Of a stretch of DNA of 64,000 nt, positions 1,193-61,172 are shown piece by piece (position 1 is the stretch's first letter; every line of letters starts with the position of its first letter). The notes beneath the pieces were generated by a model. That model worked only from the letters and a program-made list of their open reading frames with translations. It was not told where the DNA came from and made no database searches. The stretch is taken from NCBI GenBank assembly GCA_035935465.1, contig DASYXA010000089.1, positions 9,692-73,691 of the forward strand, in the 5' to 3' direction. The translations under genes and the position numbers were made by a program. The DNA comes from Candidatus Limnocylindria bacterium (GTDB lineage: Bacteria > Chloroflexota > Limnocylindria > P2-11E).

Positions 1193-2254
1193 CTACGAGC
1201 GGAGCGACTCCTGCCGGCGATGGCGCGCGTACAGGGCGCCGCCGATGACGATGACCGAGAAGACGCTCACCAGGCGGTCCAGCACCGCGACCGCGATGGC
1301 GTCGTGCGTCGCGAGCCCGAAGCCCGTGGTGAGCACGTACACCACGGCAAGCTCGACGAACCCGAAGCCCGCCGGCGTGAGCGGGACGGTCGTAAGGAGC
1401 GACGACGCGACCGCGACGAAGATCACGCCGGAGATCGGAAGCTCGAGCCGGAGCGCGGCGAGGACGAACGCGAGCCGCGCGGCCTCCGCGAGCCAGATGA
1501 CGACGGTCTCGGGACCCGCCTCCGGGAGGGCGCGGAACGAGTGGAGCACCCCCTCGCGGAACAGGCGGCCGATCCGCCGCACCTCGCCCGGGAAGAAGCG
1601 CGCCACGCGCGGCGCGACGTAGTACACGGCGACGAACGCGACGACGATGAGGGCAGCGAGGACCGCGGCCGAGAGGTAGACGAGCCGGAGATCCGGGAGC
1701 ACGGTGCGGCCGAACGCGATGTACCCGCCCACGAGGAGCAGCGCGAAGACGACGAAGATGTCGAGAAGCCGCTCCGCGACGACCACGCCGACGGTGCGCG
1801 ACAGCGAGACGTTGAACCGCTGCTTCACCAGGTAGCTGCGATAGAGATCCCCGAGCTTCGCGGGCGCGAGGCAGTTCACGAACCAGCCGAGCAGCAGGAT
1901 CTCGAGCAGATCGCGGCCGCGGAGCATGAGCCCGCCCTCGCGCAGCAGCCGCGCCCATCGGCGCGCACGCACGGGGAACGTGGCGTAGTAGACGACCAGC
2001 GCCCCCAGCACCAGGAGCGGGTTCGAGCCGCGGATGGTGGCGAGCGCGGTCCCCCAGTCGACGTTGCGCGCGACGATCAACAGGAGGACGAGCGGGACGA
2101 GGATCGAGAGCGCCTCGCGCCAGCCGAACAGCCGGCGCCCGATCGCGCGCTCGTCGGCCAGGCCCGCTTCCTCGGCGAGCCGCTCGATCGACGGGTCTTC
2201 GACGTGCGTCGGGAGCCGCGTCAGGAGGTCCTGCTCCCGCGCCGGCCGAGCCAC
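1193..2254 (-). CDS. UPF0104 / LPG-synthase-TM-domain family integral membrane protein (flippase-like), often found next to glycosyltransferases
   Basis: C-terminal 313 aa of ORF 1193..3097 (RLFGWREALSILVPLVLLLIV...GGALYARHRRQESLRS) are multi-TM. The upstream part of that ORF is an off-frame overlap with the PHP gene. The only canonical start is GTG at 2252-2254, giving a 34-nt overlap with the PHP gene. Alternatively CTG at 2222-2224 overlaps the PHP TGA stop as CTGA. Confidence 0.6.
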   Translation of the reverse strand: MARPAREQDLLTRLPTHVEDPSIERLAEEAGLADERAIGRRLFGWREALSILVPLVLLLIVARNVDWGTALATIRGSNPLLVLGALVVYYATFPVRARRWARLLREGGLMLRGRDLLEILLLGWFVNCLAPAKLGDLYRSYLVKQRFNVSLSRTVGVVVAERLLDIFVVFALLLVGGYIAFGRTVLPDLRLVYLSAAVLAALIVVAFVAVYYVAPRVARFFPGEVRRIGRLFREGVLHSFRALPEAGPETVVIWLAEAARLAFVLAALRLELPISGVIFVAVASSLLTTVPLTPAGFGFVELAVVYVLTTGFGLATHDAIAVAVLDRLVSVFSVIVIGGALYARHRRQESLRS

Positions 2255-2877
2255 TTCCGGAACGTGTCGTACCGCGTGTAGAAATGGATGGAGGGCCCGG
2301 CGAGGCGGCCGGTCACTTCGCCGTTCTTGAGCGAGGCGATGAAGTCGGCCGGTCCCGTGAAGTCCGGGATCTCGACGTACGCGCGGCCGATCTCCCACGG
2401 CCGATGCGCGTCGCTCCCGACCGCGCCGGGGATCCCGTGGAGCACGGAGAACGCGAGCGCGCGGCGGTTGTCGTTCGCGATCGCCTCGCGCGCGTTGAAC
2501 ACCTCGATCGCATCGATCGTCGGCCAGACGCGCTCGAGGGCCTCGCGCTTGATCCGGTAGAGCCGGTTGTGGCTGTACGGGTGCGGGATCGAGACGAGGC
2601 CGCCCTGCTCGTGGATGCGCGCGATCGTCTCCTCGGCGGAGAGGCCCCGCGGGACCGCCTGCTCGAGGAACAGCCCGATGATCTCGCCGTCGCGCGACGA
2701 GACCTCTTCGCCGATCACGACCCGGAAGCCGTCGGCCTGCTCGCGGAGCCGGAGCGCGCCCTCGATCGTGTTGTGGTCGGTCGCGCACACGACGTCGAGG
2801 CCGGCGGCCTTGATCGCGATCGCCTGCACCGAGATCGGCGTGCGGCTGTCCGGCGAGTACTCGCAGTGCGTGTGCAT
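2221..2877 (-). CDS. PHP-domain metal-dependent phosphoesterase (TrpH/YciV-like)
   Basis: The C-terminal 218 aa of ORF 2221..4173 start MHTHCEYSPDSRTPISVQAIAIKAAGLDVVCATDHNTIEGAL, carrying the H-x-H and DHN PHP motifs. ATG at 2875-2877 was verified as cat on the plus strand. The upstream part of the ORF is Arg-rich junk. Confidence 0.65.
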   Translation of the reverse strand: MHTHCEYSPDSRTPISVQAIAIKAAGLDVVCATDHNTIEGALRLREQADGFRVVIGEEVSSRDGEIIGLFLEQAVPRGLSAEETIARIHEQGGLVSIPHPYSHNRLYRIKREALERVWPTIDAIEVFNAREAIANDNRRALAFSVLHGIPGAVGSDAHRPWEIGRAYVEIPDFTGPADFIASLKNGEVTGRLAGPSIHFYTRYDTFRKWLGRRGSRTS

Positions 2878-2906
2878 GTCGAGCTTGATCTGCTTCGGGG
2901 CGTCGG

Positions 2907-4004
2907 TCAGCTCGCTCTCCCTTCGGCGCGCGCGTGGTCGAGGCTTGCGCGGATCCGGGACTCGAATCGTGACACATCGAACCGGCGGGCGGAGCGACGC
3001 AGATCCTGCGGGTCGAAGCCGGCCTGCTCCACTCGGCGGACGGCCGCGGCGAAGAGCTCCGGGTCCGGCGTCGCGACGAGCGCACCGTCGGCGCCATCGC
3101 GGACGATGTCGGTCGCGCCGCCGAGACCGAGCGCGACGACGGGCGCGCCCGAAGCGAGCGCCTCCGCGCACACGATCCCGAAGTCGTCCTCGGCCGGGAA
3201 GATGAACCCGCGCGCGGCGCCGAGCAGCTCCTTCACGGTCGCGTCGTCGACGCGGCCGGTGAACGTCACGTTGTCCCGGGCAAGCCGCTCGAGCGACGAG
3301 CGCTCGCGTCCCTCGCCGACGACGATGAGCCGCATCCCGACCTCGTTGAACGCCTGCACCGCGACGTCGACGCGCTTGTACGCCGAGAGCCGCGAGACGA
3401 TCACCCAGAAGTCGCCGCGCTCGCGCGCGGGCCTGAAGGCGTCGACGTCGACCGGCGGATGGATGACCTCGCTGTCGCGTCCGTAGTAGCGCTTGATCCG
3501 CGCGCGGACGACGTCGGAGTTCGCGATCCAGTGATCGACCCGCTGCGCACCGCGCAGATCGGCGTCGCGCAGGCCTGGGAGCAGCGACCGGATCGTCCCG
3601 CGGAGCGCGCCGGGCACCTCCTCGGCGAGGTACTCCTCGCTCCAATCCCAGAGGTAGCGCGTCGGTGAGTGGCAGTACGCGACGTGGATCGTGTCCTCCG
3701 GCAGGGCGAGGCACTTGATGAACGCGCTCGTCGACGACAGCAGCAGCCCGGTCCCGCTCGCGACGCGCAGGCCGGCGGCGGCGCGCGGGTACAGCGGGAG
3801 GAGCGCGCGATGGAGACCACCACCGAGCGGGATGCTCTGCAGGAACGAGGTCCGCAGCTCGTATCCCGGCAGCGGCCCGTACGCGCGCCTGTCGTGGAAG
3901 AACGTGTAGACCGGCGCGTCCGGATGCATGCGGTGGAACACCTCGACGACGCGCTCCGCGCCGCCGTGCTGCGAGAAGTACTCGTGGGCGAGCGCGACCG
4001 TCAT
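2907..4004 (-). CDS. Glycosyltransferase family 4 (GT-B fold)
   Basis: 365-aa product MTVALAHEYFSQHGGAERVVEVFHRMHPDAPVYT...GLGGATDIV with the EX7E-type C-terminal domain. ATG verified at 4002-4004. It makes a 4-nt ATGA overlap with the upstream tagA-like gene. Confidence 0.8.
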   Translation of the reverse strand: MTVALAHEYFSQHGGAERVVEVFHRMHPDAPVYTFFHDRRAYGPLPGYELRTSFLQSIPLGGGLHRALLPLYPRAAAGLRVASGTGLLLSSTSAFIKCLALPEDTIHVAYCHSPTRYLWDWSEEYLAEEVPGALRGTIRSLLPGLRDADLRGAQRVDHWIANSDVVRARIKRYYGRDSEVIHPPVDVDAFRPARERGDFWVIVSRLSAYKRVDVAVQAFNEVGMRLIVVGEGRERSSLERLARDNVTFTGRVDDATVKELLGAARGFIFPAEDDFGIVCAEALASGAPVVALGLGGATDIVRDGADGALVATPDPELFAAAVRRVEQAGFDPQDLRRSARRFDVSRFESRIRASLDHARAEGRAS

Positions 4005-24154: not shown

Positions 24155-25054
24155 CTAGCCCGCGTCCGCGGCCAGCAGCTTCGCCATGTCGGCGGCGTTC
24201 GTCACGGCCTTGTCGCCGTAGCAGTTGTTCATGAGGACGTGGACCTCCTCGGTCTCGTCGGCGAGGTGTCTGATCTTGGCGAGCCACTCGGCGAGCTCCT
24301 CGTTCGAGTACGAGTAGTCGAACCGCTCGGCCGCGGAGAGGCCCTTCTTCTTCCAGTTCTCGGCGTTGCGTCCGTGGAACCGGACGATCGCGAGCCGCTC
24401 CGAGGTCGCGGCCGCGACCGGCGGCACGCTCGACGGGAAGCCCTGCGGCTCGTCCACGGCGACGTAGGTGAGGCCGTTGTCCGCCAGGAACGTCAACGTC
24501 TCGGCCCGGTTGCGCTCGCTCATCCAGGTCTCGTTGCGGAACTCGACGGCGAGGCGGTCGTCGGGCAGGCGCTCGCGCGCGTGCAGGATCTCGTCCTTGT
24601 TCCGGTGTGAGATCACGAACCAGTCGGGGTACTGCAGGAGGATCGCGCCGAGCTTGCCGGCCGTCCGCAGCGGCTCGAGGGCGACCCAGAAGCGCGCGTG
24701 GATCTCGTCGCGGATCTCGGCCGGGAGATCCTTCGGATAGAGCCGCCGCTTGTCCCGGGCCGCGGCCGGGAGCGACTCGCGGATGTTCTTCGGCAGCCGC
24801 TGCGGATCGATCGGGTGCGTCGTGATCGTGCCGAAGGCCTTGAAGTCCATGGTGAAGCCGGCTGGCGTGCGCTCCGTCCAAAGCTGCGCCTGCTTCGGGT
24901 CCGGGAGCGCGTAGTACGCCGCGTCGTTCTCGACCACCGGGAACCGGTCGGCGTAGAACCGGAGGCGCTCGTCGGCCTTCTTCGCGACCTGCTCGGGATA
25001 CCAGCCCGACGCGAGGAGCGTGGGATCGGTCCACGAGCACGTGCCGACCTTGAT
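24155..25054 (-). CDS. DUF72 (YecE-like, UPF0759) family protein; start codon unresolved
   Basis: The C-terminal 299 aa of ORF 24155..25579 read IKVGTCSWTDPTLLASGWYPEQ..., matching YecE MIYIGLPQW. No ATG/GTG/TTG lies between that N-terminus and the wecA stop. ATC at 25052-25054 and ATA at 25100-25102 are the only in-frame near-cognates; the ATA overlaps the wecA TAG as ATAG. Confidence 0.55.
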   Translation of the reverse strand: MKVGTCSWTDPTLLASGWYPEQVAKKADERLRFYADRFPVVENDAAYYALPDPKQAQLWTERTPAGFTMDFKAFGTITTHPIDPQRLPKNIRESLPAAARDKRRLYPKDLPAEIRDEIHARFWVALEPLRTAGKLGAILLQYPDWFVISHRNKDEILHARERLPDDRLAVEFRNETWMSERNRAETLTFLADNGLTYVAVDEPQGFPSSVPPVAAATSERLAIVRFHGRNAENWKKKGLSAAERFDYSYSNEELAEWLAKIRHLADETEEVHVLMNNCYGDKAVTNAADMAKLLAADAG

Positions 25055-25098: not shown

Positions 25099-26220
25099 CT
25101 ATTCGGCCTTCTCCGGATAGAGGCTCGGATCGAGCTCCTCGGCCTTCGCGCTGCGCTGCGACAGGGCGAGCACGACGACACCGAACAGCACGAGCACGCC
25201 GACGAAGGCGTAGGTCTGCGCGCGGCCGCTCGACAGGAACGCGAGCGCGCCGAGACCGAGGGTGATCGCGTAGATGAGCAGCACGGCCTGGCGGTGCGAC
25301 AGGCCGACGTCGAGCAGCTTGTGGTGGAAGTGGCCGCGATCGGGCGCGAACGGCGCTTGGCCCGTGACGAGGCGGCGGACGATCACGTAGAAGGTGTCGA
25401 TGATCGGCACGCCGAGGACGAGGAGCGCCGCCGCGACCTTCGCGGTGCCGAAGATCGACAGCACCGCGAGCATGGTGCCGACGAACGCGACGCCGGTCGT
25501 GCCGAGGAACACCTTCGCCGGATGGACGTTGAAGACGAGGAAACCCGCGATCGCGCCCGCGAGCGTGAAGTTCATCCACGCCACGAACGGCTCGTTCACC
25601 GCCGGCAGGAGCGCGGTGGCGCCGAGGGCGACGGCCGCGATGGCCGCGACGCCGGCGGCCAGGCCGTCGAGCCCGTCGATGAAGTTCAGGGCGTTGTTCA
25701 TGCCGACGATCCAGAAGACCGTGAATCCGATCGCGATCGGCGGCGCGAGCTGGATGAGCCCGTCCCCGCGCGGGTCGTTGATGAAGTCGACGCGGATGCC
25801 GGCCGCGACGATGATCGCCGCGATCGCGAAGTAGCCGAGCAGCTGCCAGCGAGCCCGCAGGTCGAGGGCGTCGTCGAGCACGCCGACGGCGAGCCCGAGG
25901 AATGCGGCCATCGCGGTGAGCGTGAAGCGCGGCGTGCGGACCTCCTCGGGGATGAGGAACGGGTGACCGTTCAGCCGGTCGACGAGCCAGAACGCGAACA
26001 CCGCGAGCCCGAACGCGATCGCGATCCCGAGGCCGCCGATCCGCGGGATCGGCTCGGGATGCGTCCGCCGGCCACCGGGTGTGTCCAGGAGCCCGATCCG
26101 GCGGGCGAGCGCGCCGACGATCGGCGTCACCGCGAGCGCGATGAGGAACGCGAGCAGCGCCGAGCCGGCGAACAGCAGGAGCGTGCTCGCACTGACCGTG
26201 ACGGAGAGGAACGGATCCAT
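25099..26220 (-). CDS. wecA: Undecaprenyl-phosphate GlcNAc-1-phosphate transferase (WecA/TagO/Rfe, MraY-family polyprenyl-phosphate N-acetylhexosamine-1-phosphate transferase)
   Basis: 373-aa, 10-11-TM protein with the NALNFIDGLDGLA motif. It occupies the position of rfe in the conserved actinobacterial gene order. Confidence 0.8.
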   Translation of the reverse strand: MDPFLSVTVSASTLLLFAGSALLAFLIALAVTPIVGALARRIGLLDTPGGRRTHPEPIPRIGGLGIAIAFGLAVFAFWLVDRLNGHPFLIPEEVRTPRFTLTAMAAFLGLAVGVLDDALDLRARWQLLGYFAIAAIIVAAGIRVDFINDPRGDGLIQLAPPIAIGFTVFWIVGMNNALNFIDGLDGLAAGVAAIAAVALGATALLPAVNEPFVAWMNFTLAGAIAGFLVFNVHPAKVFLGTTGVAFVGTMLAVLSIFGTAKVAAALLVLGVPIIDTFYVIVRRLVTGQAPFAPDRGHFHHKLLDVGLSHRQAVLLIYAITLGLGALAFLSSGRAQTYAFVGVLVLFGVVVLALSQRSAKAEELDPSLYPEKAE

Positions 26221-26849
26221 CAGCTCGTACCGAACTGGCGGTCGCCGGCGTCGCCGAGGCCGGGGACGATGTAGCCCTTCTCGTTCAGGCGCTCGTCGAG
26301 CGCCGCGACGTGGACCGGGACGTCAGGATGCGCGTCGCTCAACGCCCGCACGCCCTCGGGCGCCGCGATCAGGCCGACGTACTTCACCCGGCGCGCACCC
26401 CACCGCTTGAGGATCTCGATCGTCGCGACGGACGAGCCGCCGGTCGCGAGCATCGGGTCGAGGACCAGGCAGACCTGCGCGGTCGCCTCCGACGGGAGCT
26501 TGTTGTAGTACTCGATCGGCCGGAGCGTGTGCTCGTCGCGGAACAGGCCGATGTGCCAGACCTGCGCCTCCGGGATGAGCTGCAGCGCCGCCTCGACCAT
26601 ACCGATGCCCGCTCGCAAGACCGGCACCAGACCGATCGTCTGGCTCAAGCGCGCCCCGGTATATGGGGCGAGCGGCGTCCGCACCTCGGCCGGAACGGTC
26701 GACAGGTCGGCGGTCGCCTCGTAGAGGACGAGCAGCGCGATCTCGTGGACCAGCCGCCGGAACTCCGGAGGCGGCGTCCGCTCGTCACGAAGGCGCGTGA
26801 CCTTCTCCTTGACGAGCGGGTGGGTCGAGACGTGGAGCTGGTCGGTCAG
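26220..26849 (-). CDS. upp: Uracil phosphoribosyltransferase
   Basis: [16 protein letters not shown]...[11 protein letters not shown]...[16 protein letters not shown] aligns end to end with Upp. There is no canonical start; CTG at 26847-26849 overlaps the glyA TGA as CTGA. Confidence 0.8.
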
Positions 26850-28114
26850 GCTCGGGCCGGCTCGCGGGTGGTCGGGGATATCCCGGGCACCGGGAACCGG
26901 CGCGTCAGGTCGAGCACCTCGTCGGCGATCTGCTTCGCGATCGTCTCGTCCTTCGCCTCGCGCAGGGCGCGGGCGATGAGCGCGCCGATACGCTCCATCT
27001 CGGCTTCCTTCATCCCGCGCGTCGTGATCGCGGGCGTGCCGATGCGGATGCCCGACGCGGTCCCCGGCTTCTGCGGGTCGTACGGGATGGTGTTCTTGTT
27101 CACGGTGATCCCGACCGCATCGAGGAGCTTCTCCGCCGCCTTGCCGGTGAGGCTCATCGGCCGGACGTCGACGAGCATGAGATGGTTGTCGGTGCCGCCC
27201 GATACGACGCGGAGCCCGGCGCCCGCGAGCGCCGCGGCGAGCGTCGTCGCGTTCGCGCGGATCTGCTTCGCGTAGGTCCTGAACTCCGGCGTCGCCGCTT
27301 CCTTGAGCGCGACGGCCTTGCCGGCGATGACGTGCATGAGCGGGCCGCCCTGCGCGTACGGGAACACCGCCTTGTCGACCGCCTTCGCGTACTCCTCGGT
27401 GCAGAGGATCATCCCGCCGCGCGGGCCACGGAGCGTCTTGTGCGTCGTGGTGGTCACGATCTGCGCGTGTGGCACCGGGTTCGGATGCTCCCCCGCCGCG
27501 ACGAGACCGGCGAAGTGCGCCATGTCGACCATCAGGAGCGCGCCCACAGCGTCGGCGATCGCCCGAAGGCGCGCGAAGTCGAAGAACCTTGGATACGCGG
27601 TCGCGCCGGCCACGATGAGCTTCGGGTGGTGCTCCGTCGCGAGGGCTTCGAGCGCGTCGTAGTCGATGGTCTCGTCGTCGCGCTTCACCCCGTACGGCAC
27701 GAACGTATAGAGCTGGGCCGAGAAGTTCACCGGGGAGCCGTGGGTCAGGTGGCCGCCCTGATCGAGGGCCATGCCGAGCACCACGTCGCCCGGCTTGAGG
27801 ATCGCGGCGTAGGCCGACATGTTCGCCTGCGCGCCGGCGTGCGGCTGGACGTTCGCGTGCTGCGCGCCGAACAGCGCCTTCGCGCGCTCGATCGCCAATG
27901 ACTCGGCGACGTCGACCCACTCGCAGCCGCCGTAGTAGCGGTGCCCCGGGTAGCCCTCGGCATACTTGTTCGTGAGCACGCTGCCGACCGCGTCCAGGAC
28001 CGCCTGGCTCGTGTAGTTCTCGGACGCGATGAGCTCGATCTTCTCGACCTGCCGCTTGCGTTCGCTCTCGATCGCCGCGTAGATCTCCGGATCGATCCGT
28101 TCGAGCTCGCTCAT
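26846..28114 (-). CDS. glyA: Serine hydroxymethyltransferase
   Basis: [22 protein letters not shown]...[17 protein letters not shown] verified at 28112-28114 with an AAAGGTGAAAGGGA Shine-Dalgarno. The 60-aa N-extension in the ORF track is junk. Confidence 0.95.
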
Positions 28115-32114: not shown

Positions 32115-32170
32115 ACTCGCGACCTCTAGGGGAGGCCTGACCGATCGCTACCGCCACGTTGCCGCGCACC

Positions 32171-33571
32171 ATGAGCGTCAGCGAGAAGGCTGCATCGCGC
32201 GCATTGCGCACCGCGCTGTCGCGCGGCGGCGACTGGGCCGAGCTGTTCTGGGAGCGCAGCAACACGGTCACGCTCACCCTCGATGACGGCAAGCTCGAGG
32301 ATGCGATCACCGGCGTGGACCAGGGTGCCGGGATCCGCGTGACCGCGCGCGACCGCGGCGTGTACGCGAACGGGAACGTGAACGACGGCGACGACCTGCT
32401 CGCCATCGCCGGCCGCGCGGCCGCGGCGATCGCCGACGACGGCGGCACGCGTGAGGTCACCGCGATCTCGGCCGACGTGCTCCCCCGCCCATCCGTCGTG
32501 CAGATCGACCCGCGGACCGTGCCGATCGAGCGCAAGGTCGCCCTCCTGAAGCTCGCGAACGAGCGCGCGCGGGCCGCGGACCCGCGCGTGCACCAGGTGA
32601 CCGTGCTGTACCGCGAGAGCGTCCAGGACGTCGTCGTCGCGAACAGCGACGGGCGTTTCCGCACCGACTCGCGCACGCGGCTCGTCTTCGGCGTGCTCGT
32701 CACGGCGAAGCAGGGCGACGTGCTCGAGTCCGGCTACAAGGCGAGGGCCGGCACCGAGGGTTTCGAGATGCTCACCGAGGAGGCCGTGCTCGAGACCACG
32801 CTGACGGCCGCGCGGCTCGCCGTGCAGAACGTCCAGGCCGAGCCCGCGCCGGCCGGCACGTACACGGTCGTGCTCGCGAGCGACGCCGGCGGCACCCTCA
32901 TCCACGAGTCGGTCGGGCACGGGCTCGAGGCGGATCTCAACCTCAAGGGGATGTCGGTGTACTCGGGCCGGCTCGGACAGCAGGTCGCGAGCGAGCTCAT
33001 CACGGTCATCGACGACGGGACCGACCCGGGCAAGCGCGGCACCCAGGCGATGGACGACGAGGGGACCCAGACCGGCCGCACCGTGCTGATCGAGAACGGG
33101 ATCCTGAAGACGTACCTGAGCGACCGGAAGCACGCGCGGAAGCTCGGCATCCCGGAGAGCGGCAACGGGCGGCGCGAGTCGTTCCGGCACCTGCCGATCT
33201 GCCGGATGACCACGACCATGATCCGGCCCGGCACGTCCGATCCGGCCGCGATCCTGGCGTCGGTGCAGGACGGCGTCTTCGTGAAGGGCATGGGCGGCGG
33301 GCAGGTCGACGTCGTCAGCGGCAACTTCGCGTTCGAGATCACCGAGTGCTATCGGATCCGCGACGGAAAGCAGGCCGAGCCGCTGCGCGGCGCGACGCTC
33401 GTCGGCCAGGGCCCGAAGCTCATGAGCGAGATCGACATGGTCGGCTGGGACCTCGGCTACTCGGTCGGGACCTGCGGCAAGGAGGGCCAGGGCGCCCCGG
33501 TCGCCGACGCCCAGCCGACGCTGCGCATCCCGAGCGTCGTCGTCGGCGGCAAGGTGAAAGCGCAGCGATGA
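32171..33571 (+). CDS. tldD: Metalloprotease TldD
   Basis: HESVGHGLEADLN motif. ATG at 32171. The ORF track's TTG at 32159 has poor Shine-Dalgarno spacing. Confidence 0.85.
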   Translation: MSVSEKAASRALRTALSRGGDWAELFWERSNTVTLTLDDGKLEDAITGVDQGAGIRVTARDRGVYANGNVNDGDDLLAIAGRAAAAIADDGGTREVTAISADVLPRPSVVQIDPRTVPIERKVALLKLANERARAADPRVHQVTVLYRESVQDVVVANSDGRFRTDSRTRLVFGVLVTAKQGDVLESGYKARAGTEGFEMLTEEAVLETTLTAARLAVQNVQAEPAPAGTYTVVLASDAGGTLIHESVGHGLEADLNLKGMSVYSGRLGQQVASELITVIDDGTDPGKRGTQAMDDEGTQTGRTVLIENGILKTYLSDRKHARKLGIPESGNGRRESFRHLPICRMTTTMIRPGTSDPAAILASVQDGVFVKGMGGGQVDVVSGNFAFEITECYRIRDGKQAEPLRGATLVGQGPKLMSEIDMVGWDLGYSVGTCGKEGQGAPVADAQPTLRIPSVVVGGKVKAQR

Positions 33572-34926
33572 GCGAGAAGCTGTCCAACGACGCGGCCGTG
33601 GATCGCGCGCTCGCGTCGATCAGGGGCGTGCGGGTCGATGGCGGCGAGGTGTTCCTCCGCGACGGCCAGTCGACGACGGTCGAGGTGCGCGAGGGCGAGA
33701 TCGAGAACGCGATCACCCGCGGCGAACGCGGCATCGGCGTGCGCGTGCTGCGCGGCGGCCGGGTCGGATTCGCCTACTCGAGCGACCTGTCGGCCGCGGG
33801 GATCGAGGACTGCGTCAACGCGTCGCGCGACATCGCGTCCGTGACCGAGCCGGATCCGGACGTGTCCATCGCGACGCACAAGATCGAGCCACCCGATCTG
33901 CGCCTGTACGAGCCGGGCATCGACGAGCGCTCGGTGCGGGAGCGCGCGGAGGTCGCGTTCGCGGTCGAGCGTGCGGCGAGGCGCGTCGACGCCCGCATCA
34001 CCGGGTTCCGCAAGACGACGTACAGCGACGGATCGCTGACGACGATCGTCGCCACGACCGCCGACGTCCGCGGCACCTACCGCGAGACGTACTTCAGCGT
34101 CGGCACGTCCGCGGTCGCGACGGCCGGCGAGGAGCGGCAGGTCGGCTATCACGGCGAGGCGAAGCGGCAGTTCGCCGCGATCGATCCCGACGCGGTGGGC
34201 CGCCGCGCGGCGGAGCTCGCGGTCGGCAAGCTCGGCGCGCGGACGTTCAAGACGCAGACGCTGCCGATCGTGCTCGACCCGTACATGGGGATCTCGCTGC
34301 TCGGCGCGCTCGTACCGCTCTTCTCGGCGGACTCGGTGATCAAGGGCAAGAGCCTGTTCGCGGGCAGGCTCGGCGAGGCGGTGGCCAGCGACCGGGTGAC
34401 GATCGTGGACGACGCGCGGACGCCCGGTGCCCTCCGCAGCGCGCCGTTCGACGGCGAGGGCGTCGCGACGAGCACGCGCACGCTCGTCGACACAGGCGTG
34501 TTGCGCGGCTACCTCTCGTCGCTCAAGACGGCGAAGAAGATGGACCAGCCCCCCACCGGCAATGCGCGGCGGTCGTCATACGCGGCGCCCAGCCGGATCG
34601 GTGCCGCGAACTTCCATCTCGCGGCCGGTGGGACCGACCCCCGGGTGCTCGTGAGGCGGCTCGACCGGTCGCTGCGGATCACCTCGCTGCTCAACCTGCA
34701 CACGGTCGATCCGATCTCCGGCGAGTTCTCGCTCGGCGCGACCGGCGACTACCTGGAGCAGGGCGAGCGCCGGTACCCGGTCCAGGGCATCACCATCGCG
34801 GGCAATCTCACGACGCTCCTCGCGTCGATCACCGGCGTCGCGAACGACCTGACGTTCGGGTCGTCCGGGCTCGGGAGCCCGACGGTCGTCATCTCCCAGC
34901 TGTCCGTCGGAGGCGTCTCCGCCTGA
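33568..34926 (+). CDS. pmbA: Metalloprotease PmbA/TldE
   Basis: TldD/PmbA-family product MSEKLSNDAAVDRALASIRGVRVDGGEVFL. ATG at 33568 overlaps the tldD TGA as ATGA. Confidence 0.8.
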   Translation: MSEKLSNDAAVDRALASIRGVRVDGGEVFLRDGQSTTVEVREGEIENAITRGERGIGVRVLRGGRVGFAYSSDLSAAGIEDCVNASRDIASVTEPDPDVSIATHKIEPPDLRLYEPGIDERSVRERAEVAFAVERAARRVDARITGFRKTTYSDGSLTTIVATTADVRGTYRETYFSVGTSAVATAGEERQVGYHGEAKRQFAAIDPDAVGRRAAELAVGKLGARTFKTQTLPIVLDPYMGISLLGALVPLFSADSVIKGKSLFAGRLGEAVASDRVTIVDDARTPGALRSAPFDGEGVATSTRTLVDTGVLRGYLSSLKTAKKMDQPPTGNARRSSYAAPSRIGAANFHLAAGGTDPRVLVRRLDRSLRITSLLNLHTVDPISGEFSLGATGDYLEQGERRYPVQGITIAGNLTTLLASITGVANDLTFGSSGLGSPTVVISQLSVGGVSA

Positions 34927-35030
34927 CCAAGCTGCTGAAAGACCAGGCACCGTTCCGTTTCGGCGCGGGACAGGAGTGCACGTTCCCGGCAGCGCTCGCA
35001 GCGGCCACGAAGACCGAGTACGACTGGCTC

Positions 35031-35864
35031 ATGGGCGCGTCAGGCGCGGCGTTCGACACGACGATCGACGTCGAGGGCTTCGATCCCCTCGCGGCGACGC
35101 CGCGCGATCCCGAGACGCAGAGGCTCGCGGCGCGCGCGGCCGGGGTGAGGCTCGACGACGTGCCGCCGCCGTACGACGACGAGCTTCGCGATCTCGTGGC
35201 CGCGCGGATCCGCGAGGCGATCGACGCAAGGCTGCCGCCGCTCATCCGCGGGGCCGTCGGTCCTCCCGAGTACGGGCTGATCGTCGGATACACCGACGAC
35301 GACCGGTTCCTGGTGCGCACGTTCTTCGACAAGGACGACAAGCCGAGCCAGATCGGCTGGCCCGACTTCATCGACGCGGAGCACGGCGGCCCGATCTTCC
35401 TCGATGAGACGGGTCCCCCCGAGCGCGCGATGGTCGCGAAGGGCGGCCTCGATGCCGGCCTTGCGCGCGCCGAGCGCTCCCTCGGGGCGCTCATGGGCTG
35501 GGCCACGGCGCTGCGCGACGAGGCACGGTGGGCCGATGTGAAGCACGCCGGCACCGCGGCGTTCGCCGATCACGCGATGCGCGTCGTCCTCGCGGACAAG
35601 CGGCGGGCCGCGGCCCGGTTCCTGCGCGGGCTGCGCTCGTTGTTCACGACGCCGGGCGGAGATCTGCTTCGCGCGGCCGAATCGTACGGTTACGTCGTGG
35701 AGGCGCTCGAGAAGGTCGGGACGAAGCCGTTCGACGCGTCGGTGGCGATGCGGTTCCTCGACCCGGGCCACCGCCGCGGCATCGCCAAGGCGCTGGACGC
35801 CGTCCTCGGCCACGAGCAGGAGGCCCACGACGCGCTCCGGGCCGCTCGTGCGAGCATCCGGTAG
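35031..35864 (+). CDS. Hypothetical protein
   Basis: 277-aa product with non-junk composition (YGLIVGYTDDDRFLVRTFFDKDDKPSQIGWPDFIDAEHGGPIF). No family recognised. Confidence 0.45.
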   Translation: MGASGAAFDTTIDVEGFDPLAATPRDPETQRLAARAAGVRLDDVPPPYDDELRDLVAARIREAIDARLPPLIRGAVGPPEYGLIVGYTDDDRFLVRTFFDKDDKPSQIGWPDFIDAEHGGPIFLDETGPPERAMVAKGGLDAGLARAERSLGALMGWATALRDEARWADVKHAGTAAFADHAMRVVLADKRRAAARFLRGLRSLFTTPGGDLLRAAESYGYVVEALEKVGTKPFDASVAMRFLDPGHRRGIAKALDAVLGHEQEAHDALRAARASIR

Positions 35865-35883
35865 GACATGCGGAGATCGATAG

Positions 35884-36684
35884 CTGACTGACCAGCTCGC
35901 GGCCGTCATCCTCGGCCTGGTACAGGGACTCACCGAGTTCCTGCCGGTGAGCTCGACCGCCCACCTCATCCTGGTATCCGACGTCCTCAAGCTCGACCCT
36001 GCGAAATTCGGACTCAGCTTCGATGTCGCGCTGCACCTCGGGACCGCGCTCGCGGTCCTCGTCTACTTCGCCTCGGCCTGGATCGGCCTCCTCGGCGACG
36101 TGCTGCGCGGCCGCTGGCGGCTGCCGATCGTCATCGTCGTCGGGACGATCCCCGGGGCCGTCGCCGGCGTGCTCCTCGAGACCGCGGTGTCCACGACGCT
36201 GCGGAGCGCCGTGTACATCGCGGTCGGTCTGGTCATCGGATCCGCGGTCTTCGTCCTCGCCGAGCGCCTCGGGGCGCGGCGGCGCCGGCTCGAGCGCGCG
36301 TCGCTCGTCGACGCGGTCGTCATCGGCGCGGCCCAGGCCCTCGCGCTCCTTCCCGGCATCTCGCGATCGGGCATCACGATCTCGGCCGGGCTGTTCCGCG
36401 GTCTCGAGCGCGGCGACGCGACGCGGTTCTCGTTCCTCCTGGCCACACCGATCATCCTCGGCGCGGGCGCGAAGACGCTGCTCGACGCGCGCAAGCTCTC
36501 CGGCCTCACCGCGGAGCTGGACATCGTCCTCATCGGCTTCGCGGTGTCGTTCCTCTCGGGCCTCGCGGCGGTCGCGTTCATGGTCCGGTACCTGCGCACG
36601 CATTCGCTGAGCGTCTTCGTCATCTACCGCGTCGCGCTCGCGGTCGTCATCCTCGCGGCGGTGGCCGTCGGCGCGCTGAGCTGA
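35884..36684 (+). CDS. uppP: Undecaprenyl-diphosphatase UppP/BacA
   Basis: LTDQLAAVILGLVQGLTEFLPVSSTAHLILVS...GISRSGITISAG. The conserved N-terminal helix lies upstream of the only canonical start (GTG 35947). An in-frame TAG at 35881-35883 is followed at once by CTG at 35884. Confidence 0.75.
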   Translation: MTDQLAAVILGLVQGLTEFLPVSSTAHLILVSDVLKLDPAKFGLSFDVALHLGTALAVLVYFASAWIGLLGDVLRGRWRLPIVIVVGTIPGAVAGVLLETAVSTTLRSAVYIAVGLVIGSAVFVLAERLGARRRRLERASLVDAVVIGAAQALALLPGISRSGITISAGLFRGLERGDATRFSFLLATPIILGAGAKTLLDARKLSGLTAELDIVLIGFAVSFLSGLAAVAFMVRYLRTHSLSVFVIYRVALAVVILAAVAVGALS

Positions 36685-49579: not shown

Positions 49580-50308
49580 CTGTCAGCCATCGGCACCGCG
49601 CTGTTCATCTACGCCCATCCCGACGACGAATCGTTCGTGTCCGGCACGCCCATGACGCTTGCCGCCGCGGGACACCGGATCGCGCTGCTCACGCTCACCC
49701 GTGGCGACGCGGGCCTCTGGCTCGGCAAGACGTTCGGTTCGTGGTCGAAGCCGGAGCTCGGGGCGGAGCGCGCGAACGAGTGGGCCGCGGCCGTGGCCGT
49801 CATCGGCTACCACTGGTCGACGCTCCTGCGGTATCCGGACGGCGGCCTCAAGGACGCGCCGGCCGAGGTCATCACCGCCGACGTCGTCGAGGCGATCCGC
49901 GCGGTCCGCCCCGACGTGGTCTGCACCTTCGGCCCCGAGGGCGCGGGCAGCGAGCACGACGACCATCGGTCCACGTCGTACTTCGCCGCGCGCGCCTTCG
50001 CGCGCGCGGCGCTCGCCGACCAGTACCCCGAGCGCGGCGAGCCGCATCTCGCCCGGCGGCTCTACTTCAGCGCGACCCCATACACGGCCGGCGCACCTGC
50101 CGCGTTCGGCGCGACGACGCCGACCCATGTCATCGACATTTCGGCATTCGAGAAGCGGAAGGCCGACGCATTCGAGTGCCATAAGACGCAGCACAAGGAC
50201 CGCGCCTTCTTCTACGACCTCCTGAAGCGCCGCGCAGGCAAGGAGTATTTCCATCTCGCGATCGACCGCACCGGGGCGCCGACGGGCTCCGACGACCTGC
50301 TGGCCTAG
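49580..50308 (+). CDS. PIG-L / LmbE-family N-acetylglucosaminyl deacetylase
   Basis: The zinc motif AHPDDES lies upstream of the first canonical start (GTG 49637), and no ATG/GTG/TTG precedes it in frame. CTG at 49580-49582 sits 1 nt after a TAA and gives (M)SAIGTALFIYAHPDDE. Confidence 0.65.
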   Translation: MSAIGTALFIYAHPDDESFVSGTPMTLAAAGHRIALLTLTRGDAGLWLGKTFGSWSKPELGAERANEWAAAVAVIGYHWSTLLRYPDGGLKDAPAEVITADVVEAIRAVRPDVVCTFGPEGAGSEHDDHRSTSYFAARAFARAALADQYPERGEPHLARRLYFSATPYTAGAPAAFGATTPTHVIDISAFEKRKADAFECHKTQHKDRAFFYDLLKRRAGKEYFHLAIDRTGAPTGSDDLLA

Positions 50309-57415: not shown

Positions 57416-57485
57416 GGGTGTTGTGTCCTCCCCGGGTCGACCGGTGCGGAAGTGCTGTGCCCGGTCCTGCCGGACTGCTATCCTT

Positions 57486-57504
57486 CTTGTTGTACAGGAA
57501 CAAG
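57486..57504. promoter_or_regulatory. Perfect inverted repeat CTTGTT-N7-AACAAG in the yceI / marR divergent region (candidate MarR operator)
   Basis: cttgtt gtacagg aacaag sits in the most AT-rich stretch of the intergenic region. Confidence 0.4.
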
Positions 57505-57554: not shown

Positions 57555-57992
57555 CTGAGCGCGTGGCGCGCCTTCCTGCGCGCCGGCACGGCCTCGGCCC
57601 TCGCACTCGAGTCCGCCCTCGCGGAGACCCGGGTGTCCCACTCCGAGTACGACGTGCTCCTCAACGTGGCCACCGGGCCGAAGGATGGGCTGCGGCCTAC
57701 CGACCTCGCCGAGCGCGTGCTCATCACGAAGAGCGGCCTGACTCGCCTGCTCGACCGGCTGGTCGAGCGCGGATACATCGAGCGCCGCACGTGCGCGAGC
57801 GACCGCCGCGGGCAGCTCGTCGTGTTGACCGCGGACGGACGGCGCGCATTCCGGCGAGCGGCGCCCAACGTCGTGCGGGCGATCGGCGCGCTCTTCGGCG
57901 ACGGCTTCACCGAGCGCGATCTCGCCGCGCTCCGTGTGGCGTGCGAGCGGATCGCGACGACCGCGGAGGCGATGACCACCCCACCTCAGTAG
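57555..57992 (+). CDS. MarR-family transcriptional regulator
   Basis: LSAWRAFLRAGTASALALESALAETRVSHSEYDVLLNV...TKSGLTRLLDRLVERGYIERR. The only in-frame canonical starts (ATG 57414, GTG 57423) overlap the yceI start codon and would place the palindrome inside the CDS. CTG at 57555 is the alternative. Confidence 0.6.
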   Translation: MSAWRAFLRAGTASALALESALAETRVSHSEYDVLLNVATGPKDGLRPTDLAERVLITKSGLTRLLDRLVERGYIERRTCASDRRGQLVVLTADGRRAFRRAAPNVVRAIGALFGDGFTERDLAALRVACERIATTAEAMTTPPQ

Positions 57993-58002
57993 GCTCGGTC
58001 GC

Positions 58003-59478
58003 GTGAGGCGCCTTTCCGCGGGCGGGCTGGTCTGGGCAGGATTCGACGGACCTGCCGTTCCCGGGCCGTTGCTCGACGGCATCGCGCGCGGGCGGATCGG
58101 CGGCCTCCTCCTGTTCGCGTATCGCGGCAACCTCCGTTCGCGCGACGCGGTCCGCGGCATGCTCCGCGAGGCCGCGGACGCGGCGCGGCGCGGCGGCCTG
58201 CCGCCGGTCCCGGTGGGCGTCGATCAAGAAGGTGGCGCCGTCGTGCGCATCGGGTACGGCGCGGTGTTCCCGAGCGCGTTGGCCATCGCCGCGACCGGCG
58301 ATCCCGCGAACGCGGAGCGGGTGGCCGGCGCGGTCGCCCGCGGCCTGCGCGCCGACGGCATCGCGATGAACCACGCCCCGGTGTGCGACGTGAACGTCGA
58401 GCCGCGCAACCCGGTGATCGGCACGCGCTCGTTCGGGGACGAAGCGAGCGATGTCGCGCGCTACTGCGCGGCGTGGGTGCGGGGCTCCGAGGCAGCGGGG
58501 GTCGCCACGTCGCCGAAGCACTTCCCGGGTCACGGCGCGACGGGATACGACACGCACCACACGACGGTCGATGTCCCGGCCGACCGCGCGGTCCTCGAGG
58601 CGCGCGAGCTCGTCCCGTTCCGCGCTGCGTTCGCCGCGGGCGCGACGTCGGTCATGACCGCGCACATCCGCTACCCGGCGCTGGACGACGGGAATATCGC
58701 GACGCTCTCGCCGCGGATCCTGGGCGACCTGCTCCGCCGGGAGCTCGGCTTCGGCGGCCTCGCGGTCACGGATTCGCTCGACATGTCCGGCCTGACCCAG
58801 GTGGAGACGCCCGAACGCGTGGCGGCGCGTGCGGTGAACGCGGGGATCGACGCGGTGATGGTGACGAGCGGCCTGGACCGGCAGCTCGAAACGTCCGAGC
58901 ATCTCGCGCTCGGTGTAGCGCCCGCGCGCCTGCGCGAGGCGCTCGTCCGCGCGGCGGCATTCCGCGAACGCTTCGGGATCGAGGTACCCGACGCGCCGTT
59001 CGACGACGCGCCGGGACGCGCGCTGGCGCTCGAGGTCGCGGCCGCCTCGATCACGCACGTCGGCCCCCCGCTGCCCCCGCTCGGCGGACCGATCCGGGTC
59101 GTCCTGCTGCCGTCCGGGCGGCGATCACCGGTGGAGGAGCTCGCGCAGCCCGAGGCGGACTTCGAGAACGCGTTGCGCGAGCGCCTCGGATCGAAGGTCG
59201 CGTTCTCGGCGGAGGGCGGCGCGCCGGATGGCGAGGGGCCGCTCGTCGTGTGCACGTCGAGCGCGTGCTTCGATCCCGCGCAGGCCGAGCGCGCACGGGC
59301 GCTCCTCGCGGGCGGCGGCATGCTCTGCGCGCTGCGCAGCCCCTACGACGCGTCGCTCGTCCCGGGAGTGCCGGCGCTCCTCACCTACGGCGATGTCCCC
59401 GTGTCGCTGGCCGCGCTCGCCGACGTGCTGGCCGGGCGCGCACCGCTGCGCGGGATCCTGCCGGTCCGCCTGCCGTGA
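58003..59478 (+). CDS. nagZ: Beta-N-acetylhexosaminidase, GH3 (NagZ-like, cytoplasmic)
   Basis: GVDQEGGAVVR ... KHFPGHGATGYDTHH ... TDSLDMSG. GTG at 58003. Confidence 0.8.
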   Translation: MRRLSAGGLVWAGFDGPAVPGPLLDGIARGRIGGLLLFAYRGNLRSRDAVRGMLREAADAARRGGLPPVPVGVDQEGGAVVRIGYGAVFPSALAIAATGDPANAERVAGAVARGLRADGIAMNHAPVCDVNVEPRNPVIGTRSFGDEASDVARYCAAWVRGSEAAGVATSPKHFPGHGATGYDTHHTTVDVPADRAVLEARELVPFRAAFAAGATSVMTAHIRYPALDDGNIATLSPRILGDLLRRELGFGGLAVTDSLDMSGLTQVETPERVAARAVNAGIDAVMVTSGLDRQLETSEHLALGVAPARLREALVRAAAFRERFGIEVPDAPFDDAPGRALALEVAAASITHVGPPLPPLGGPIRVVLLPSGRRSPVEELAQPEADFENALRERLGSKVAFSAEGGAPDGEGPLVVCTSSACFDPAQAERARALLAGGGMLCALRSPYDASLVPGVPALLTYGDVPVSLAALADVLAGRAPLRGILPVRLP

Positions 59479-61172
59479 ACCGGCGACGTCTGCTCGCCCG
59501 GACCGCGGCGGCCGCCGCGCTCGCGGCATGCACCCCGTTCCAGAGCCATCCGATCGGCACGATCGGCGGATCCCGCGCGGACCGGATGCTCGCCGGCATG
59601 TCGCCGGCGGCGCGGGCCGGCCAGCTGATGAGCGTCGCGTTCCGCGGCACGAAGATCACGCCGGCCCTCGAGGCGATGATCCGCGGCCGGAGCGTCGGCG
59701 GCGTGATCCTCTACGCGGAGAACTTCGACGGCGACGCGGCGCGGCTGAAGGCGCTCATCGCCGACCTGTCGCGCATCGCGGCCGAGGCCACGGTCGTGCC
59801 GCTGTTCTTCTCGATCGACCAGGAGGGTGGCGCGGTCGTCCGCATCGGGCGCGGCGCGACCATCCTGCCCGGGAACATGGCCCTGGCCGCGACGCCCGAT
59901 CCGGCCGACAGCGTGCGCAAGGCCGTCGCGATCACCGCGCGCGACCTGCGCGCCCTCGGCGTGAACTTCGAGCTCGCGCCGGACGCCGACGTGAACAACG
60001 AGCCGCGCAACCCGATCATCCTCAACCGCTCGTTCGGCTCCGACCCGCAGCGCGTCGCCTCGCTCGTGACGGTCGCGACGAACGCGTTCGCCGACGCGAA
60101 GCTCTTGTGCTGCGTCAAGCACTTCCCCGGCCACGGCGCGACGACGACCGATTCGCACACCGGCCTTCCGCTGCTGGACGTCGACCGCGCACGCCTCGAC
60201 GCGGTCGAGCTCGTGCCGTTCAGGGCCGCGATCGCCGCGGGCACCCCCGCGATCATGAGCGCGCACATCCGGATCCCGGCGCTCGACCCGACGCCGGACG
60301 TCCCGGTGACGCTCTCCCGACGGGTCATGACCGGCCTCATCCGCACGGAGCTCGGCTTCGGCGGCCTGCTCGTCACCGACGACCTCGAGATGGGCGCGCT
60401 CACGCAGACCCGATCCGAGTCACAGGCCGGCTACGACGCGTTCCTCGCCGGTGCGGATCTCCTGCTGTTCCGGTTCGACGAGAGCGCGCAGACCGACGCG
60501 CACGACCGGCTGACGCGAAGCATCACCACGGACCAGACGGCCCTGACGCGATCCGGCGATTCGGTCGGACGGATCCTCGCGGTCAAGGAGCGGTTCGGGA
60601 TCCTCGATGCCTCGGCGCCGAGCGGGACCGCCGGGAGCGACGCGGACCGCGCGACGGCCGACGAGCTCGCGCGTGCGAGCATCACCGTCCTGCGCGCCGG
60701 CGGACTCCCGCTGCGGGGACGGATCTTCGCCGTCTCGCCGCTCGACCCCGACATCGCGCTCGTGGCGGATCAGCCCTCGCTCGGCCAGGTGCTCGCGCAG
60801 CGCCTGCCGAACGTCACGACGCAGACGATCACCCTGTCGCCCAGCCGGTCGGACATCGATCGCGCGGTCGCGTCCGCGCGCGCGGCGGACGTCGTGGTCC
60901 TGGGCGCGGCCGATCTGTTCTCGTATCCGCAGCAGGCGACGCTCGCGAGGGCGCTGCAAGCCGTGAAGCCGACGGTGCTGGTGTCGCTCCGCTCGCCCTA
61001 CGACATCCTGAGCGCGCCGTCGGTCGCGGGCTACGTGTGCGCCTACACCGGGCGCGAGCCGACGCTCCGCGCGCTGGCCGGCGTCCTGTCCGGATCGCGG
61101 GCACCGACAGGCACCCTGCCGGTCGACGTCCCCGGTGCCTACCGTATCGGCGACGGGATGAAGCGGCTCTGA
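59475..61172 (+). CDS. Secreted GH3 beta-N-acetylhexosaminidase-like lipoprotein (Tat signal) with a C-terminal alpha/beta domain
   Basis: (M)NRRRLLARTAAAAALAACTP, then SIDQEGGAVVR, KHFPGHGATTTDSH and TDDLEMGA. GTG at 59475 overlaps the nagZ TGA as GTGA. Confidence 0.75.
   Translation: MNRRRLLARTAAAAALAACTPFQSHPIGTIGGSRADRMLAGMSPAARAGQLMSVAFRGTKITPALEAMIRGRSVGGVILYAENFDGDAARLKALIADLSRIAAEATVVPLFFSIDQEGGAVVRIGRGATILPGNMALAATPDPADSVRKAVAITARDLRALGVNFELAPDADVNNEPRNPIILNRSFGSDPQRVASLVTVATNAFADAKLLCCVKHFPGHGATTTDSHTGLPLLDVDRARLDAVELVPFRAAIAAGTPAIMSAHIRIPALDPTPDVPVTLSRRVMTGLIRTELGFGGLLVTDDLEMGALTQTRSESQAGYDAFLAGADLLLFRFDESAQTDAHDRLTRSITTDQTALTRSGDSVGRILAVKERFGILDASAPSGTAGSDADRATADELARASITVLRAGGLPLRGRIFAVSPLDPDIALVADQPSLGQVLAQRLPNVTTQTITLSPSRSDIDRAVASARAADVVVLGAADLFSYPQQATLARALQAVKPTVLVSLRSPYDILSAPSVAGYVCAYTGREPTLRALAGVLSGSRAPTGTLPVDVPGAYRIGDGMKRL

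Follow-up and report, generated by a model that had tools for sequence, protein, structure and literature searches.

Probable CTG start codons at upp and other genes of a Candidatus Limnocylindria bacterium, several of them overlapping an upstream TGA stop

The window analyzed in this work is a stretch of 64,000 nucleotides (nt), or 64 kb, of contig DASYXA010000089.1 (assembly GCA_035935465.1). It belongs to a metagenome-assembled genome (MAG) of a Candidatus Limnocylindria soil bacterium with a G+C content of about 71%; the window itself contains 68–74% G+C. On the reverse strand, the glyA gene (28114..26846) is followed by upp (26220..26849), which encodes uracil phosphoribosyltransferase. 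The glyA stop codon, TGA at 26846..26848, overlaps a CTG at 26847..26849, and the reverse complement of positions 26835–26852 reads AGC CTG ACC GAC CAG CTC. Counted from this CTG, Upp is 209 amino acids (aa) long, and positions 1–206 of the Pfam UPRTase profile align to its residues 7–208. No other start seems usable. The sole canonical start (ATG, GTG, or TTG) upstream of the CTG and before an in-frame stop is GTG 27920, located 357 codons away across glyA. The first one downstream is GTG 26684, 55 codons into the frame, and its use would delete about 50 residues of the UPRTase domain. The original prediction had claimed that upp begins at a CTG overlapping the glyA stop with no usable canonical start, and this is borne out by the sequence, by the position of GTG 27920, and by the profile boundary at residue 7. 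ATC 26879, ten codons upstream of the CTG, was considered as a start and rejected; it is not conserved, the relatives L001 and L002 having TAT/CAC in its place.

The closest Upp proteins are annotated as belonging to Candidatus Limnocylindria (Chloroflexota), with identity to the window protein of up to 93%. A genome scan yielded 13 Limnocylindria loci with conserved synteny, and CTGA is present at the glyA/upp junction in 11 of the 12 that include it, as well as in three more contigs obtained via the DUF72 gene. CTGA was found at this junction in 15 assemblies (the window, L001, L002, L004–L010, L021, L026, L170, L171, and L173). The overlap is kept among relatives with 79–91% Upp amino-acid identity to the window, while the last glyA codon changes (GCC, ATC, CGC, CAC, AAC, AGC, or ACC), its third base always being C. 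In L168 and L169 (about 87% Upp identity), the upp start column contains GTGA, and the encoded Upp is 209 aa long, the same as the window Upp counted from the CTG; L003 has a GTG three codons upstream of this column instead. The 18 junctions thus comprise 15 with CTG, two with GTG, and that of L003. Relatives' Upp proteins of equal 209-aa length start with M or V, and in the outgroup Anaerolineae and Chloroflexia, ATG or GTG with GGAG is located at the position homologous to the CTG. The NCBI annotation takes the CTG of L002 as the upp start (P0014, ‘MTEQLHVS’). Both the encoded GlyA and the glyA–upp junction are identical in a second assembly, Logan SRR12347814.

These data bear on two explanations that dispense with a CTG start. 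According to the first, the sequence contains sequencing or assembly errors, or the genes are pseudogenes, and the true genome has an ATG, a GTG, or a frameshift. The sequence does originate from a MAG, and the marR start column, discussed below, is GTA in the window alone versus GTG or ATG in orthologues, which shows that start codons can differ by a single base. Yet the CTG recurs in 15 assemblies for upp and in seven, five, and four for three further genes described below (PHP, the gene at 34923, and the serine hydrolase gene), from different studies and assemblers. Codon usage in the CTG-start genes is intact, as is protein conservation throughout. Errors are effectively refuted by the cross-assembly conservation, and we assign them a negligible probability. 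The second explanation is a programmed −1 frameshift shortly before the upstream gene ends, which would produce fusions such as GlyA–Upp and need no start codon; the downstream frame is indeed −1 relative to the upstream one at every NTGA junction. However, no in-frame X XXY YYZ slippery heptamer precedes the glyA stop, and relatives show no nucleotide-level conservation in this region. Moreover, the 14 ATGA and GTGA junctions of the window share this geometry and need no frameshifting, the paired genes are functionally unrelated, and relatives and outgroups encode a stand-alone Upp with its own ATG or GTG and Shine–Dalgarno (SD) sequence. Frameshifting is therefore extremely improbable.

The upp gene is not the only one of this kind in the window. 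A gene finder based on codon-usage log-likelihood was built, the G+C content of third codon positions (GC3) being about 0.9 in real frames, and it revealed 62 complete genes. In about 51 of the 62, the coding onset is no more than a few codons from an ATG or GTG, and in one to three from a TTG. In six genes, no canonical start is acceptable, its cost being 10–23 log-likelihood units, while a CTG at the onset costs at most 1.5 units. These are PHP (2910), upp (26849), the gene for a 313-aa protein (34923), uppP (35884), an LmbE-like gene (49580), and a serine hydrolase gene (61169). Their products are salvage, cell-envelope, or hydrolase enzymes. ATG or GTG is used by glyA and the ATP synthase genes of the window. 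Two more genes, DUF72 (25054) and marR, have neither an acceptable canonical start nor a CTG at the onset. Two other candidates, g8984 and g58072, were rejected as startless genes; the former has an ordinary start, ATG 9281, ahead of a twin-arginine signal, and the latter an ordinary conserved start, GTG 58003.

Altogether, six to seven of the 62 genes, or about 10%, appear to have CTG starts, in addition to the probable ATC/ATA starts of a TldD-like gene and DUF72. The assertion of the original prediction that near-cognate starts are far more frequent here than the bacterial norm is strongly supported by comparison with relatives, with a changed list of genes: among the six cases named, marR is not supported and the UPF0104 gene is ambiguous, and the genes at 2910 and 34923 have been added. 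Co-directional gene pairs in the window form 4-nt stop–start overlaps of the types GTGA (10), ATGA (4), and CTGA (5). The four ATGA junctions had been counted correctly, the GTGA junctions had been given as six, and only three CTGA junctions had been listed, those at 2910–2907 and 34923–34926 being missed. The same geometry is found in the wider lineage, where 112 NTGA junctions were detected in approximately 820 kb of Limnocylindria DNA.

The first of the added junctions, CTGA at 2907..2910 on the reverse strand, combines the TGA of a GT4 glycosyltransferase gene (4004..2907) with the CTG of a gene encoding a PHP/CehA-like metallohydrolase (2910..2221). An SD-like AGGGAG (2917..2922, reverse strand) lies 6 nt upstream of the CTG. 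The CTG is kept in all seven sequences compared, each of which also contains AAGGGAG with a 6-nt spacer. Distant PHP homologues begin with M or V upstream of the conserved IKLD strand; P0168, likewise 229 aa in length, opens MSKQRKKIKLDMHTH. The CehA/McbA and PHP profiles start before the internal ATG 2877. Most public PHP calls are 218 aa long, beginning at the Met of the DMHTH motif, and the window protein is 100% identical over 218 residues to the NCBI-called P0121 (MAG TPA: Candidatus Limnocylindria bacterium). To judge by these alignments, PHP would have no compatible canonical start only if the IKLD strand belongs to the protein.

The second added junction, CTGA at 34923..34926 on the forward strand, joins a PmbA-like gene, whose TGA ends the coding sequence 33568..34926, to the 313-aa gene (34923..35864). 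GGAGG at 34909..34913 (forward strand) lies 9 nt upstream of the CTG in the window; it is not present in every orthologue. At the start column, CTG ACC is found in L001, L008, L010, and L021, GTG in L026, and ATG (ATG ACC) in L169, the tally being five CTG, one GTG, and one ATG. In-frame stops are located four codons upstream of the CTG in L001 and L021. Measured from the coding onset, the nearest canonical start is 38 codons away, and it lies 36 codons downstream of the CTG.

The next gene, uppP, encodes undecaprenyl-diphosphatase (35884..36684, forward strand) and begins 19 nt past the preceding stop. Its CTG (35884..35886) is directly preceded by an in-frame TAG (35881–35883), and GGAG (35872..35875, forward strand) is located 8 nt upstream; L026 has GGAAGGAG at similar spacing. 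Position 1 of the BacA profile falls on residue 7, and the next canonical start, GTG 35947, would cut the conserved GLTEFLPVSS motif. The start column contains ATG in L001 and L169 and CTG AAC in L008 and L026 (three CTG and two ATG in total).

The gene of the LmbE/BshB-like deacetylase (49580..50308, forward strand) begins with CTG 49580..49582 and is divergent from the gene starting at 49562. Profiles begin at residue 8, and the next canonical start, GTG 49637, falls after the AHPDDE motif. The start column is CTG in L083 and GTG in L118. A side observation concerns L102 and L109, in which, compared with L118, one base is missing just after the ancestral GTG, leaving it out of frame behind TAG/TAA; the only starts that remain are an ATC (IGTVLF...) and a GTG placed two codons ahead of the AHPDD motif. 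For uppP and the LmbE-like gene, the lack of a usable canonical start, as originally predicted, was confirmed.

The same was found for the proposed CTGA at 61169..61172 on the forward strand, where the TGA of a GH3 beta-N-acetylhexosaminidase-like gene (59475..61172) overlaps the CTG of the serine hydrolase gene (61169..62197). This junction is real, and canonical alternatives cost at least 12 log-likelihood units. In 19 orthologous junctions it has the form NTGA, N being G in eight, T in six, C in four, and A in one. When orthologues were aligned, the CTG column proved to be kept or replaced by canonical starts in all six genes: upp, PHP, 34923, uppP, the LmbE-like gene, and the serine hydrolase gene. 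L169 (87% Upp identity) has GTG, ATG, and ATG exactly at the CTG columns of upp, 34923, and uppP in the window. The canonical-start columns of about 20 other genes contain only mixtures of ATG, GTG, and TTG and never CTG, so that the use of CTG is specific to certain genes and does not reflect alignment noise.

The proteins might instead start at canonical codons elsewhere, being either shorter (Upp of 197 or 171 aa, PHP of 218 aa, DUF72 of about 258 aa) or longer through the upstream gene, with the CTG a Leu codon or non-coding. Public gene calls have exactly this form, CTG-started versions of the window proteins are absent from a collection of 15 billion proteins, and PHP has a conserved ATG at residue 12. 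However, truncation would strip conserved domain starts, namely UPRTase positions 1 to approximately 49, the GLTEFLPVSS motif of BacA, and the AHPDDE motif of PIG-L. The 197-aa Upp of the catalogues is a fallback of gene callers to a GTG at codon 13, which in the window is GTC. Extending upp upstream would mean translating 357 more residues across glyA in the wrong frame, and no extension is possible for uppP, or for the gene at 34923 in L001 and L021, owing to in-frame stops. Besides, the segment from the CTG to the downstream canonical codon shows protein-level conservation, with synonymous changes. Canonical starts elsewhere are thus improbable.

Several observations weigh against CTG starts. 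C precedes 52% of the TGA stops that have no overlapping downstream gene, and the string CTGA carries little weight. PHP contains a conserved internal ATG 11 codons downstream, chosen by all gene callers, and a shorter protein is possible. SD sequences are uneven, being strong for PHP, uppP, and 34923 in the window and weak or absent for upp, the serine hydrolase gene, and the LmbE-like gene. The compared loci are orthologous copies of two syntenic regions, and family-level counts are small (about ten families). Finally, CUG initiates at 1–2% of the AUG level in E. coli, so that its function here needs coupling, more permissive machinery, or a very low required expression.

With regard to the first of these points, C occurs less often at NTGA junctions than ahead of TGA stops elsewhere, and the canonical CTGATG accounts for half of the CTGA matches. 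Base counts at NTGA junctions were rejected as a test for CTGA enrichment, the tetranucleotide alone not being evidence. What goes beyond chance is the combination of a missing canonical start, an N-terminal homology boundary at the CTG, and a column that is conserved or alternates with ATG, GTG, or TTG. CTG accounts for only about 30% of Leu codons, and drift to CTC would be expected if it were an ordinary Leu codon. No such drift is seen; the replacements at supported CTG columns are start codons only.

An identical codon-usage pipeline was applied to other clades. The best canonical start costs more than 20 codon-equivalents in 7.7% of 678 Limnocylindria genes, 1.8% of 109 Anaerolineae/Chloroflexia genes, and 2.4% of 753 Bacillota genes; with more than 30 codon-equivalents, the proportions are 4.0%, 0%, and 0.66%, respectively. 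Genes without any acceptable canonical start are 3–6 times more frequent in the Limnocylindria loci than in either of the other groups, although this control is crude, the loci being orthologous copies of two regions and the information per codon differing with G+C content. Two other tests were set aside. In the ‘rescue’ test, which compares CTG with decoy codons within 2 log-likelihood units of the onset, CTG rescues 28 of 71 genes at a codon frequency of 2.9% and CTC 27 of 71 at 6.3%; this margin is too permissive, and the CTG enrichment is only modest. Lineage-wide, an SD, by the motif definition used here, precedes 23% of ATG and 11% of GTG codons in frame near coding onsets. Since even ATG and GTG rarely have an SD here, an SD-based test of CTG/ATC enrichment has no power.

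Taken together, the comparisons make it highly probable that the genes are real and protein-coding, and that ribosomes start on them at the near-cognate codon CUG with the usual initiator fMet-tRNA. That CUG starts are real at upp and at least four other genes is likely. In the proposed mechanism, fMet-tRNAfMet would initiate on CUG with a mismatch at the first codon position, as for GUG and UUG. In upp, PHP, 34923, and the serine hydrolase gene (perhaps also in the UPF0104 gene), the CUG overlaps the upstream co-directional UGA, as in the 14 ATGA and GTGA junctions, and a ribosome that has just terminated would re-initiate one base back. Translation of the upstream gene would deliver the ribosome, which would offset the low intrinsic efficiency of CUG and set a low downstream-to-upstream protein ratio. 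Since four to five CTG starts have the same 4-nt overlap as the 14 canonical junctions, termination–reinitiation is the most economical delivery route, and we lean, with some reserve, towards it as the main route at overlaps. It cannot serve the LmbE-like gene, since this gene is divergent and has no co-directional gene upstream. Nor does uppP need it, being located 19 nt past the previous stop and having its own GGAG. If their starts are assigned correctly, these two genes show that CUG is usable without an overlap. Initiation with fMet, dependence on upstream termination, and low expression as the selected outcome are all three points that we infer.

The ribosome could also arrive differently. 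30S subunits may initiate de novo at the CUG, aided by an SD or by mRNA structure, with the TGA overlap being incidental and arising from operon compaction and GC3 bias. This would agree with CTG use without an overlap in uppP and the LmbE-like gene, with the strong conserved SD of PHP at ideal spacing, and with the 52% frequency of C before TGA stops in the lineage. Nevertheless, four to five of the six to seven CTG starts of the window form exact 4-nt overlaps, no good SD precedes upp or the serine hydrolase gene, and the glyA/upp overlap is kept at 79–91% Upp identity while the last upstream codon changes. De novo initiation as the general route is possible, albeit rather unlikely. Its sole difference from termination–reinitiation is the way in which the ribosome reaches the start, and the two routes may coexist.

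A single C-to-G change would convert the upp start to GTG. C is kept in 15 of the 18 junctions though G would be synonymous or tolerated in glyA, while all four bases occur at the serine hydrolase junction; one may speculate that a weak start is under selection at upp. Extended pairing of U at −1 with A37 (PMC10018350) was considered and is not applicable, since the base at −1 is C or G for five of the six well-supported CTG starts (T is found in the serine hydrolase gene alone). Compensating pairing of A at +4 with U33 is speculation, there being too few unconstrained cases.

Similarities between the openings of these genes can also be noted. The upp (26835–26849, reverse strand) and uppP (35884–35898, forward strand) genes encode unrelated proteins, and both open CTGAC(C/T)GACCAGCTC (L-T-D-Q-L). 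The two are identical at 14 of 15 nt, the chance expectation being 0.06 matches. The PHP gene opens CTGACCGACCAG in L166 and CTGACCGAC in the window. A shared opening of this kind may be a favored context downstream of CTG starts.

The closest precedent in the literature is Deinococcus deserti (Baudet et al. 2010, PMC2830850). CTG starts were reported there for rpsL, based on a tandem mass spectrometry peptide and a conserved CTG, and for hppk, based on alignment. An ATC start was assigned to dnaA by N-terminal proteomics and an ATA start to infC by alignment. As in D. deserti, the codon is conserved among relatives and gene callers misplace the start. The four non-canonical starts in that whole genome were termed ‘unusually important’ by the authors, whereas six to seven CTG starts and probable ATC/ATA starts are found here among the 62 genes of 64 kb, with comparative evidence only. 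The D. deserti cases were not described as stop–start overlaps, while most of those in the window are.

Coupling by termination–reinitiation is known from ATGA and TGATG overlaps (Huber et al. 2019, PMC6728339; review PMC12548453). The window resembles such systems in its co-directional genes, 4-nt stop–start overlaps, and geometry kept in orthologues. The difference is in the start codon, which is CTG here and canonical in the overlaps described; neither PMC6728339 nor PMC12548453 mentions CTGA, CTG, or other non-canonical starts. In E. coli (Hecht et al., bioRxiv 10.1101/063800), CUG, AUA, AUC, and AUU form the class just below AUG, GUG, and UUG, being initiated with Met at 1–2% of the AUG level, and ATG, GTG, and TTG make up 99.95% of the annotated starts in model genomes. 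The same near-cognate codons are implicated here, with CTG at about 10% of the starts in the window. No report of CTG starts in Chloroflexota/Limnocylindria was found in a literature search, and a 2026 comparative-genomics study of the clade is silent on start codons. Separately, both CUG initiation and 4-nt coupling have precedents. No paper found describes how often they occur and how well they are conserved within a single lineage; both features are unusual here.

Not all candidates proved to be CTG starts. On the reverse strand, the PHP gene and the UPF0104 (LPG_synthase_TM) gene share a CTGA at 2221..2224. Its presence agrees with the original prediction, whereas the claimed lack of an alternative does not hold, since GTG 2254, ten codons upstream, is conserved as well. 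Gene callers use this GTG, whose presence follows from the Lys-Trp codons that PHP has in the other frame. An unlinked UPF0104 copy in L166 starts with ATG three residues before a conserved His, compared with six residues for the CTG and 16 for the GTG of the window; its N-terminus is thus similar in length to that of the CTG version. Based on these comparisons, the start should be treated as ambiguous between CTG 2224 and GTG 2254.

The CTG start proposed for marR (57555..57557, forward strand) is not supported. It is replaced by CTC or ATC in eight of ten orthologues, and coding and protein conservation extend upstream. The family start column lies 21 codons upstream of the CTG, eight codons before a conserved TAT TCC; it contains GTG or ATG in ten orthologues and GTA in the window (57492–57494). 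This GTA is either a real loss of the start codon or a MAG base error. The column is located centrally in the palindrome CTTGTT-GTACAG-GAACAAG (57483–57501, forward strand), which, by its sequence, is probably the repressor's own operator. TTG, which is otherwise rare in this 70% GC lineage (0.24% of codons), prevails in the start column of a 650-aa gene (52849–54825, reverse strand); in 43 orthologues, this column is TTG in 31, GTG in 11, and ATG in one.

Two other genes point to near-cognate codons different from CTG. In the TldD-like metalloprotease gene of the window, ATC (32144..32146, forward strand) is located 8 nt after GGGGAGG (32129–32135), with an in-frame TGA two codons upstream and an ATG nine codons after the ATC. 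All 12 sequences compared have a conserved GGGGAGG and, 3–8 nt after it, an in-frame ATC (ATT in L169); the loci considered were L001–L008, L021, L026, and L169–L171. In L003, L007, L008, and L021, there is no ATG, GTG, or TTG start at all. The length of the N-terminal segment varies only by multiples of three. A start at AUC is thus probable for this gene on comparative grounds.

The DUF72 gene lacks any NTG codon close to its N-terminus, both in the window and in the majority of relatives (loci compared: L002–L008, L017, L021, and L170–L173). Its candidate start in the window is ATC 25052..25054 (reverse strand). The alternative is ATA 25102–25100, which overlaps the TAG stop of the upstream glycosyltransferase-4 gene and lies 4 nt after GGAGAAGG; another group of relatives has a conserved ATC 8 nt before the upstream stop. 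All these candidates are in frame, and the spacers differ by multiples of three. Catalogue calls shortened to about 258 aa form eight protein clusters with 154 members, 84–92% identical to the window protein.

Considered together at the sequence level, the TldD-like and DUF72 genes hint at a generally relaxed start-codon repertoire in the lineage. A further case is the upp homologue (61% identity) located near position 10001 of L027, an ‘uncultured Chloroflexia bacterium’ contig with 70% GC. It has no ATG, GTG, TTG, or CTG in the 15 codons before the HVSTHP motif. Given this homologue, non-canonical starts are perhaps not restricted to Limnocylindria. We tentatively suggest, while regarding it as rather doubtful, that Limnocylindria, or the sub-lineage with this genome, use CUG, AUC, AUA, and AUU for 5–15% of genes, often at overlaps, through a changed checkpoint in initiation factor 3 (IF3), the initiator tRNA anticodon stem, or 16S G1338/A1339. 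In the tRNAfMet variant M1 (Mattingly et al. 2024, PMC11497404), weakened inspection of the anticodon-stem G-C pairs reduces discrimination against CUG. The cases of relaxed discrimination involving IF3, 16S rRNA, or tRNAfMet are laboratory mutants, and they offer a concrete route by which a cell could accept CUG. None of the genes for the initiator tRNA, 16S rRNA, or IF3 (infC) is present in the window or the fetched loci, where only two elongator tRNAs were found.

The consequences for annotation can already be seen in the catalogues, where many N-terminally truncated entries of this clade result from Prodigal-type gene callers being limited to ATG, GTG, and TTG. Upp is listed with 197, 203, or 171 aa instead of 209, PHP with 218 instead of 229, DUF72 with about 258 instead of about 300, and RpiB of L171 with 122 aa; UppP is also affected. 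The NCBI pipeline occasionally annotates such CTG starts, as in P0014. If the relaxed repertoire is real, a considerable fraction of the proteins of this soil and freshwater clade would have their N-termini cut short or overlooked by standard callers, affecting domain annotation, structure prediction, and orthology. The weak starts at coupled junctions suggest that they may act as fixed settings of expression ratios. If a proportion of about 10% CUG starts, or more with AUC and AUA, holds across the class, Limnocylindria would represent a natural system for studying how start-codon stringency is set and whether a stop–start overlap lowers it.

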